Of a stretch of 10,684 bases of DNA, positions 173-10,684 are shown piece by piece. The position numbers and the translations under genes are program-made. The notes beneath the pieces were generated by a model, which had not been told where the DNA came from, made no database searches, and was given only the letters and a program-made list of their open reading frames with translations. This DNA is from a virus (Duplodnaviria; Heunggongvirae; Uroviricota; Caudoviricetes): IMG/VR virus record IMGVR_UViG_2671180643_000008; one strand, 5' to 3'. The first letter of the stretch is position 1. Every line of letters starts with the position of its first letter.

Positions 173-261
173 CAGAATATTTTCCTGAAAAATGACGTTG
201 GCCAACGCGGGTGGATAACACGAAATCCTGAAAACTGGTAAAACCTAAGTGAATAAAAGTA

Positions 262-300
262 AAAACCCCGTTTGTTGGCAGCAAGCGGGGTTTTGTGTTT
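262..300 (+). terminator. Intrinsic-terminator-like hairpin downstream of the endolysin gene
   Basis: AAAACCCCG (262-270) pairs perfectly with CGGGGTTTT (286-294), extendable to about 13 bp with one mismatch, and is followed by TTTTGTGTTTT. Seen directly in the sequence. Confidence 0.4.
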
Positions 301-392
301 TCTGACCTTGAGTAAGGCAAGGGAGAAATTATGGGTAGGGAGGTACTTTCCCTGTGAGGAAGTATAAAAGATTCTTTCTGAGGTTGTCCATT

Positions 393-506
393 ATGAAAGG
401 CATTGAAGTGGAGACGCCAGCCAGTCTGGATTTAACAAGAGCGGCAGCTTTTGCCATTCGTATTGTGGCCATTGCTGTTCTGGTCTGGGCAATCCGTTGG
501 TGGTGA
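393..506 (+). CDS. Hypothetical small membrane protein (37 aa) between endolysin and Rz
   Basis: ATG 393 to TGA 504-506 encodes MKGIEVETPASLDLTRAAAFAIRIVAIAVLVWAIRWW: a polar N-terminus followed by a hydrophobic helix-like segment. GAGG lies 9 nt upstream. The stop overlaps the Rz start (TGATATG). No homolog recognised. Confidence 0.25.
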   Translation: MKGIEVETPASLDLTRAAAFAIRIVAIAVLVWAIRWW

Positions 507-507
507 T

Positions 508-10404: not shown

Positions 10405-10684
<280 letters not shown>

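Follow-up and report, generated by a model that had tools for sequence, protein, structure and literature searches.

The window analysed here, a 10,684-nucleotide (nt) stretch of viral DNA (IMG/VR record IMGVR_UViG_2671180643_000008), is the late region of a lambdoid prophage of pathogenic Escherichia coli, and its positions 262-507 hold a terminator-like hairpin, a structured leader and a small gene inserted between the genes for the endolysin and the spanin Rz. The 3' end of the endolysin gene, which codes for a GH24-type lysozyme, lies on the plus strand at 2-172 (stop TAG 170-172; Pfam Phage_lysozyme and PHROG 7 endolysin; 'lysozyme' WP_001003118.1 in the Prokaryotic Genome Annotation Pipeline, PGAP). 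The i-spanin gene Rz follows on the same strand at 508-975 (start ATG 508-510; Pfam Phage_lysis, 1.9e-48), with the plus-strand o-spanin gene Rz1 embedded in it at 728-913 (Pfam Rz1, 1.7e-21), and prophages of this type carry a class II holin gene upstream. The spacer between endolysin and Rz spans 173-507 (335 bp) and is 100% identical to many O157:H7 genomes, the exact sequence occurring in 674 of 5426 complete E. coli genomes, prophage Sp4 of O157:H7 Sakai among them; over its full length the window shares 98.7% identity with prophages from other E. coli isolates. As the lambda R and Rz genes overlap by 4 nt, the comparison with lambda by which the initial annotation called this gap unusually long was a fair one, but the gap is not unusual among the lambdoid prophages of E. 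coli: it measures ~1 kb in VT2-Sakai, where it holds ant and an open reading frame (ORF) of 44 amino acids (aa), 642 bp in Ecol_AZ146 and 496 bp in 2014C-4135, and other E. coli strains have two to four small ORFs in it.

The small ORF of the window, in its short form (393-506, plus strand), opens with ATG and encodes the 37-aa peptide MKGIEVETPASLDLTRAAAFAIRIVAIAVLVWAIRWW, for which a polar N-terminal half and a hydrophobic C-terminal segment ending in RWW had been described. It had also been taken for an unannotated ORF whose stop overlaps the Rz start; it is already in RefSeq/PGAP as hypothetical protein WP_000675931.1 (ECs_1094, prophage Sp4, in strain Sakai), and one base, T507, separates its TGA (504-506) from the Rz ATG. 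Among its relatives in IMG/VR (276 found, 80 loci kept), one clade differs from the window ORF at ~19% of bases, with 18.5 synonymous differences (Sd) and 4.5 non-synonymous ones (Nd), the latter all exchanges between I, L and V. The ratio of non-synonymous to synonymous divergence (dN/dS) against this clade is 0.03-0.05, or 0.04-0.07 for the longer form of the gene described below, third codon positions account for 25 of the 31 variable sites (p = 9e-8), and the two other reading frames have dN > dS and contain stops. The frame is unbroken in every one of 31 distinct variants, none of which has a frameshift or stop; the single frameshifted record, P0006, is one sequence and looks like an error. 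The ORF thus withstands the refutation by frameshifts or stops in relatives that the initial annotation had envisaged. By these sequence comparisons the small gene is protein-coding and under strong purifying selection, and the earlier suggestion of a small membrane protein gains from them as well as from the confident C-terminal hydrophobic helix of the structural model discussed below. Searches of Pfam, NCBIfam, PADLOC and PDB sequences, and Foldseek against BFVD, found no protein similar to it. YmfR of the e14 prophage of E. coli K-12, tested as a candidate member of the family, is not one.

Several features place the likely start of the gene upstream of the annotated ATG. The GTG codon at 354 opens a 50-aa form (354-506, plus strand; MRKYKRFFLRLSIMKGIEVETPASLDLTRAAAFAIRIVAIAVLVWAIRWW) that matches phrog_4493 over nearly the full length of the profile (E = 1.4e-24, positions 1-54 of 56), the 13 extra residues adding 27 bits over the 37-aa form. 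It also matches phrog_1115 (2.1e-11, positions 8-52 of 67) and, with its C-terminal part only, phrog_3246 (9e-5), and all three PHROGs are families of unknown function. Codon 354 is ATG in L006 and L059 (related loci are cited by such labels), which are independent variants, as well as in most distant relatives, and TTG in L105, while the N-terminal motif Y-K/R-K/R-x-F/L-R-L-S/T-M-K-x-G is retained in relatives that have 30-45% identity and differ in guanine-plus-cytosine (GC) content. GTG354 has the best Shine-Dalgarno (SD) pairing in the region (SD to anti-SD, -13.2 kcal/mol). The true start is likely GTG354, with a 50-aa product, which would change the annotated length from 37 aa. The internal methionine at ATG393 is kept in all relatives, and the GAGG before it (380-383) uses the rare arginine codon AGG in 11 of the 13 diverse relatives; L091 encodes Glu-Val at this place but has still kept GGAGG, which points to a conserved internal ribosome-binding site. 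Synonymous-codon identity, counted at identical residues, reaches 0.63-0.71 over codons 2-13 and is lower, at 0.32-0.42, in the rest of the gene (0.40 and 0.32 downstream of them). ATG393 looks like a conserved second start with a GAGG of its own, and either product, of 50 or of 37 aa, is plausible.

The leader ahead of these starts is predicted to be structured. A stem-loop with a 7-bp stem (336-354, plus strand) pairs the SD sequence GGGAGG (338-343) with the bases before and into GTG354, and the same AGGGAGG...UUCCCU-NUG element occurs in L105. A smaller plus-strand stem-loop, CCUUG-AGUAAGG-CAAGG (306-322), runs with its 3' arm into the ancestral SD sequence (AAGGGAG), and equivalent stem-loops that include the SD but differ in sequence are found in L004, L087, L088, L094 and L104. 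Between them opens an eight-codon plus-strand mini-ORF, MGREVLSL (331-357), whose stop TGA (355-357) overlaps GTG 354-356; alignment with L004 attributes it to a ~26-nt insertion relative to the 60-aa subfamily, the equivalent ATG being the start of the L004 gene, and it may play some part in expression.

Upstream of the leader lies the intrinsic-terminator-like hairpin (262-300, plus strand), with a 15-pair stem at 262-294 and a T-tract at 291-300. It is as strong as first described, at -21.1 kcal/mol against -10.3 +/- 2.5 for shuffled sequences (z -4.4; 0 of 200 shuffles as stable), and an A-tract upstream of it lets it be read as a terminator on the minus strand too. The initial annotation implicitly regarded it as the terminator of the endolysin gene, but it travels with the small gene instead. 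All 15 of the diverse relatives compared have a similar GC-rich hairpin (-13 to -30 kcal/mol), situated 22-64 nt before the first start and flanked by A-rich sequence on its 5' side and T-rich sequence on its 3' side; the base of the stem, CCCCG/CGGGG, is often common to them and the inner stems differ, with compensatory pairs in the inner-stem alignment (for instance UA 9, AU 2, CG 2, GC 1) and no breaks. In L089, L091 and L092 two terminators stand in tandem, the upstream gene's own and then that of the cassette. By contrast, the AT-rich endolysin 3' flank (173-261, plus strand; 38% GC) accompanies the endolysin gene and not the cassette: its segment 173-258 is kept beside the endolysin gene in 320 phage records and ~2000 E. 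coli genomes, among them Shiga-toxin (Stx) phages that have neither hairpin nor ORF. In VT2-Sakai the homology stops at ~258, just before the hairpin, and no comparable hairpin comes after it. Because all 15 relatives carry a hairpin and none follows the same endolysin flank where the cassette is missing, as in VT2-Sakai, comparison of these loci indicates that the hairpin belongs to the small gene and not to the endolysin; it marks the 5' boundary of a cassette whose GC content, at 47%, lies below the 53-55% of the flanking genes.

The idea that this hairpin instead ends the holin-endolysin unit, or forms the 3' end of a small RNA (sRNA) derived from the endolysin transcript, with the ORF being a chance or decaying one, draws on its position 90 nt past the endolysin stop and on the joint conservation of 173-261 with the endolysin. 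We consider it scarcely credible, as the hairpin accompanies the ORF family behind unrelated genes too, is missing from the same flank in VT2-Sakai, and precedes an ORF that is clearly coding. Moreover, the known prophage sRNAs AsxR, AgvB, EcOnc and Pas of enterohaemorrhagic E. coli (EHEC) map upstream of the holin gene. Their published locations, and that of StxS, are between a moron coding sequence/esterase gene and the holin gene rather than here, and HnrS, in the papers checked, maps elsewhere or is given no location near R-Rz. A search of the whole window against Rfam at E <= 1 returned nothing in 1-1500 and only a truncated match at the far end to isrC, an Hfq-binding sRNA (10652-10684), which covers only positions 1-33 of the 123 in the model, is cut by the window end and does not reach the gathering score (E = 0.028).

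At its other end the cassette merges with the gene that follows. The Trp-Trp-stop codons of the small gene (498-507, plus strand; CGT TGG TGG TGA T, that is, UGGUGGUGAU) form the SD sequence of Rz, an 8/10 match to the extended SD AGGAGGUGAU directly before the Rz AUG, and their duplex with the 16S 3' end (-11.5 kcal/mol) is in the top 8% of random 22-mers from the window. In relatives the same TGGTGGTGAnATG junction leads into different genes (Rz in L099, a methylase gene in L105, a lipoprotein gene in both L061 and L070, a sheath-initiator gene in L094), which suggests that the cassette supplies a ribosome-binding site for whatever comes after it. This use of the WW-stop codons also offers one reason for the strong conservation of RWW-stop, and termination-reinitiation coupling to the downstream gene is probable. 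Thus, the earlier proposal of a translational-coupling leader for Rz holds in so far as the end of the ORF forms a strong Rz SD one nucleotide short of the ATG, but coupling is not the sole role, because the peptide is under purifying selection and some relatives have no abutting gene. In its extreme form, with the ORF as a pure leader or spacer and the peptide functionless, the proposal is very unlikely. Besides the junction itself it could appeal to a truncated 28-aa version, consisting of the C-terminal part only, that persists beside Rz in many genomes. Set against this, the low dN/dS reflects amino-acid selection along the whole ORF, the N-terminal and central motifs survive at 30-45% identity, and in L087, L088, L102 and L104 the abutting downstream gene is absent.

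The family to which the small gene belongs is sparsely represented in the protein and phage collections searched, in contrast to the exact spacer of the window, which is common in complete E. coli genomes. Two protein searches returned 66 and 108 cluster matches, a profile search through 1.8 billion proteins yielded no more than 31 representative clusters at 50% identity, and only 14 of 50,697 phage records contain a member, always labelled hypothetical; the locus scan was done with single proteins. In the GTDB representative genomes the family was absent at the patterns used, the only match being a spurious one in Streptomyces. Five kinds of endolysin precede the small gene: it comes after a GH24 endolysin in the window, GER2, L003, L004 and L105, after an M15 peptidase in L061, after GH108 in L070 and L099, and after a PG_binding_1 protein in L102. 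What follows it in these endolysin contexts is Rz/Rz1, a gene for a 60-aa lipoprotein, or a DNA methylase gene with Rz behind it. Elsewhere it follows major capsid genes (L088, L090) or tail-fibre genes (L089, L091-93), or sits between tail tube and tail chaperone genes (L104) or between baseplate genes (L094-96). Everywhere it is co-oriented with the late genes, and it often ends 1-3 nt before the next start. As judged from these loci, unrelated tailed phages carry the cassette at many late-operon junctions, and its commonest place is directly behind the endolysin gene. Two high-GC metagenomic phage contigs, L087 (325-737) and L088 (3001-3903), carry between two and five small ORFs in tandem, and several of these share the RWW C-terminus.

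The predicted protein is simple. AlphaFold2 models helices at residues 3-18 and 22-49, with a predicted local distance difference test score (pLDDT) of ~90 over residues 31-50. Residues 1-16 form an amphipathic helix of net charge +6, the hydrophobic maximum covers residues 29-47, a basic residue is conserved at position 36, and the chain ends in RWW. The positive-inside rule would put the N-terminus in the cytoplasm and make the protein tail-anchored; we accordingly predict from the model that the product is probably a tail-anchored inner-membrane protein. It has no holin match in Pfam, NCBIfam or PHROG, and its charge is N-terminal, with no charged C-terminal tail. Nor does it have the make-up of a spanin: the hydrophobic helix is C-terminal with only three residues after it, there is no Cys or lipobox, and true Rz/Rz1 genes lie directly downstream. 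In L061 and L070 a 60-aa predicted lipoprotein (1649-1831; lipobox LVGC; PHROG 7528, unknown function) is encoded right after the small ORF, at the place expected for Rz/Rz1, and no spanin gene was seen within these 3-kb loci. A two-part spanin made of the small ORF product and this lipoprotein was considered and rejected on predicted topology, given the +6 charge of the N-terminus and the mere three residues beyond the hydrophobic helix.

The conservation of codons 2-13 at the DNA level raises the question of an element on the opposite strand. A sigma-70 promoter-like site on the minus strand (361-390; TGGACA-18 nt-TATACT, 10/12) faces the hairpin and could give rise to a hypothetical cis-antisense RNA of ~95 nt, from 353 to ~258, with a predicted fold z of -3.2. 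The locus might then be a module akin to type I toxin-antitoxin systems, in which such an RNA, made constitutively from within the first 13 codons and ending at the bidirectional hairpin, would pair with the leader and start region and silence a membrane-harmful peptide until late transcripts outnumber it. In 8 of 10 diverse relatives a similar promoter-like site aligns with this one, the hairpin has its constant upstream A-tract and so resembles a terminator on the minus strand as well, and it is precisely the hairpin and codons 2-13 that stand out as DNA islands conserved across subfamilies, the sequence separating them being variable. With the SD sequences paired in leader stem-loops, an antisense RNA would explain both this conservation, including the raised synonymous-codon identity, and the presence of a bidirectional terminator upstream of a promoterless gene. 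We nevertheless regard it as unlikely. Conservation of the Leu-Ser/Thr codons is largely enough to account for the -35 hexamer, and relatives of high GC content have only a weak -10. Part of the synonymous constraint can be put down to the conserved internal GAGG, and G-U pairs in several hairpins favour the plus strand. No promoter for a toxin mRNA was found, Rfam (E <= 1) gave no match between 1 and 1500, and searches of Pfam, NCBIfam, PADLOC and PDB linked the peptide to no known type I toxin. A more elaborate scheme would make hairpin, leader and dual-start micro-gene a mobile self-regulating unit, its peptide held off by the bidirectional terminator and the cis-antisense RNA and freed when antiterminated late transcription swamps that RNA—in effect a portable lysis clock or membrane toxin that also supplies the downstream ribosome-binding site. 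This we take to be a speculative and rather improbable extension.

How the gene is transcribed bears directly on what it does. A consensus scan and inspection by eye of 295-353 revealed no sigma-70-like sense promoter, although weak or non-sigma-70 promoters could have escaped them, and none is apparent between hairpin and ORF in L088 either; the leader of 22-64 nt is too short to hold a promoter comfortably. In the absence of a sense promoter, we infer that the gene is probably transcribed only by antiterminated late read-through dependent on Q. Read-through of intrinsic terminators by the Q-modified polymerase of lambda is established. For Stx phages, too, the Q-modified late RNA polymerase reads through intrinsic terminators (PMC7547250). 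We favour, with a probability of roughly 55%, the interpretation that 262-507 is a self-contained and horizontally exchanged small-gene cassette, made up of terminator hairpin, structured leader and membrane-protein gene, whose expression is probably late and Q-dependent and whose product is probably an accessory late membrane factor. In the lysogen the hairpin would block stray transcription and keep the gene silent; after induction the gene would be read through the hairpin within the late transcript, the paired ribosome-binding sites holding its translation low or regulated. The peptide would enter the inner membrane late in infection, alongside Rz and Rz1, and ribosomes ending the small ORF would pass on to Rz. 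The two forms of the protein might have different activities, in the manner of holin/antiholin pairs. The most plausible task of such a late membrane factor is probably envelope disruption or the timing of lysis.

Several observations weigh against this interpretation or narrow it. About one third of the distinct contexts are not lysis cassettes, and some relatives belong to myovirus-like operons, where Q-type antitermination is not expected, so that the hairpin there must be leaky or serve another purpose. A weak or non-sigma-70 sense promoter, if the scan overlooked one, would count against it. From R36 to R48 there are only 11 hydrophobic residues, short for a membrane span, and a classical span would need R36 inside the membrane or some unusual arrangement. 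The annotated copies are all called 'hypothetical protein', and literature searches on the gene, its position and the small proteins of lysis cassettes found no description of the family. A specifically lysis-accessory role, of the kind the initial annotation had in mind when it proposed an action on lysis timing, and suggested by the frequent place after endolysin genes and by the two starts, is a best guess drawn from the neighbourhood only, and a tentative one.

The missing promoter is also central to a different proposal, that the gene is a moron of lysogenic conversion, making its membrane protein in the lysogen from an unrecognised promoter for the benefit of host or prophage, for example by superinfection exclusion. 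The cassette does lie between genes that are adjacent in lambda, with a GC content below that of its neighbours, an associated intrinsic terminator and a mosaic, promiscuous position among phages. It shares the R-Rz slot with other small membrane ORFs, and some of its relatives adjoin tail-fibre genes, next to which exclusion genes such as cor are often found. Yet the terminator stands upstream of the gene and not downstream, no sigma-70-like sense promoter was detected between hairpin and ORF in the window or in L088, and the 22-64-nt leader leaves little room for both a promoter and a 5' untranslated region. Together with the constant co-orientation with the late genes and the frequent abutment to the next one, these points render expression of this kind quite improbable.

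The R-Rz slot has other occupants. VT2-Sakai (NC_000902.1; L107) has at 2450-2584 an unannotated 44-aa hydrophobic ORF, MISDKLITLVKSLCVLVGISFLVMLVAIFFSTAWRVLTLSGLVG, ending 7 nt before the Rz ATG, and 43-aa homologues of it are annotated as hypothetical in L003 (2293-2424) and L004 (2354-2485), so the gap gathers several unrelated small membrane ORFs. In the Sakai record, Rz (ECs_1092, 'endopeptidase') is 525 bp long (174 aa; L086 19146-19670) and overlaps ECs_1094; this length is that of a window ORF at 451-975 opening at TTG451. PGAP instead starts Rz at ATG508 (155 aa), in agreement with the SD sequence found here. In Sakai Sp4 (L086 17131-21376) the block of holin, endolysin, small ORF, Rz and pchA is inverted with respect to the neighbouring late genes and lies beside copies of IS629. 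In the window a gene for a PerC/Pch-family regulator is located at 1441-1755 (104 aa), after a T-rich stretch of 33% GC (976-1440) that has a minus-strand terminator-like site at 1206-1190.

What was already known of this locus is an annotated hypothetical gene; new are the way the cassette is built, the revision of the likely start, the signs of a second one and the range of sites at which the cassette is inserted. The R-Rz junction of Shiga-toxin and related prophages emerges as a hot spot for small membrane-protein genes, presumably co-expressed with the lysis genes that release phage and toxin. Should the peptide prove to alter when lysis occurs or how intact the membrane is, the pathway usually described in terms of holin, endolysin and spanin alone would gain an accessory layer. 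The family is easy to test, being a ~150-bp gene that is common in E. coli and has a simple readout in lysis time.

Among known systems, the dual-start holin/antiholin genes, such as lambda S105/S107 and phage 21 S68/S71, come to mind on account of the two starts; lambda S and S' are annotated as two products. Like these, the cassette has a gene for a probable small membrane protein in a lysis cassette, with two in-frame starts that may both be used, extra N-terminal positive charge on the long form and predicted RNA structure at the first start. Unlike them, its starts are 13 codons apart rather than 2-3, it has a single C-terminal hydrophobic helix without a charged tail, it shares no sequence or profile similarity with them, a class II holin gene is already present upstream, and the family also occurs outside lysis cassettes. 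The type I toxin-antitoxin loci, of which hok/sok, ldr/rdl and tisB/istR are examples, resemble it in the hydrophobic peptide of <=60 aa, the leader that pairs the SD sequence, the promoter-like site on the opposite strand over the 5' end, and the compact, mobile organisation. They differ in that the cassette has neither a toxin promoter nor homology to them and its antisense RNA is putative; furthermore, its peptide has the hydrophobic helix at the C-terminus and the charged part at the N-terminus, the reverse of most type I toxins. Only one feature of the cassette recalls the dual-start holins, and it matches no family of holins, spanins or type I toxins.

Closer at hand are the other small ORFs of the R-Rz gap, namely the 43/44-aa 'MSDKLI...' family and the 70-aa WP_001043230.1. 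These share with the small gene the slot, the strand, the single-helix peptide, the position next to Rz and a hypothetical or unannotated status; their sequences are unrelated to it, and the 43/44-aa ORF lacks a hairpin of its own in VT2-Sakai. The broadest parallel is with the morons of lambdoid phages, for which lambda bor and lom and HK97 gp15 are the familiar examples. Morons are defined by Juhala/Hendrix (cited in PMC4104026). The likeness lies in extra DNA of lower GC content between late genes that adjoin in related phages, here R and Rz of lambda, in a factor-independent terminator, and in a small membrane protein of mosaic distribution; VT2-Sakai lacks the cassette. The difference is that the only strong hairpin is upstream, no terminator of its own separating the stop from the Rz start one nucleotide further on, that the consensus scans of 295-353 and L088 gave no promoter of its own, and that the gene is tied translationally to the late gene that follows it. 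With the terminator upstream, no promoter and coupling downstream, expression of the cassette in the lysogen is not to be expected. The cassette is therefore like a moron in placement, composition and cargo and departs from one in its promoter-upstream and terminator-downstream features, and the small gene is one of the small accessory genes inserted in phage late operons.

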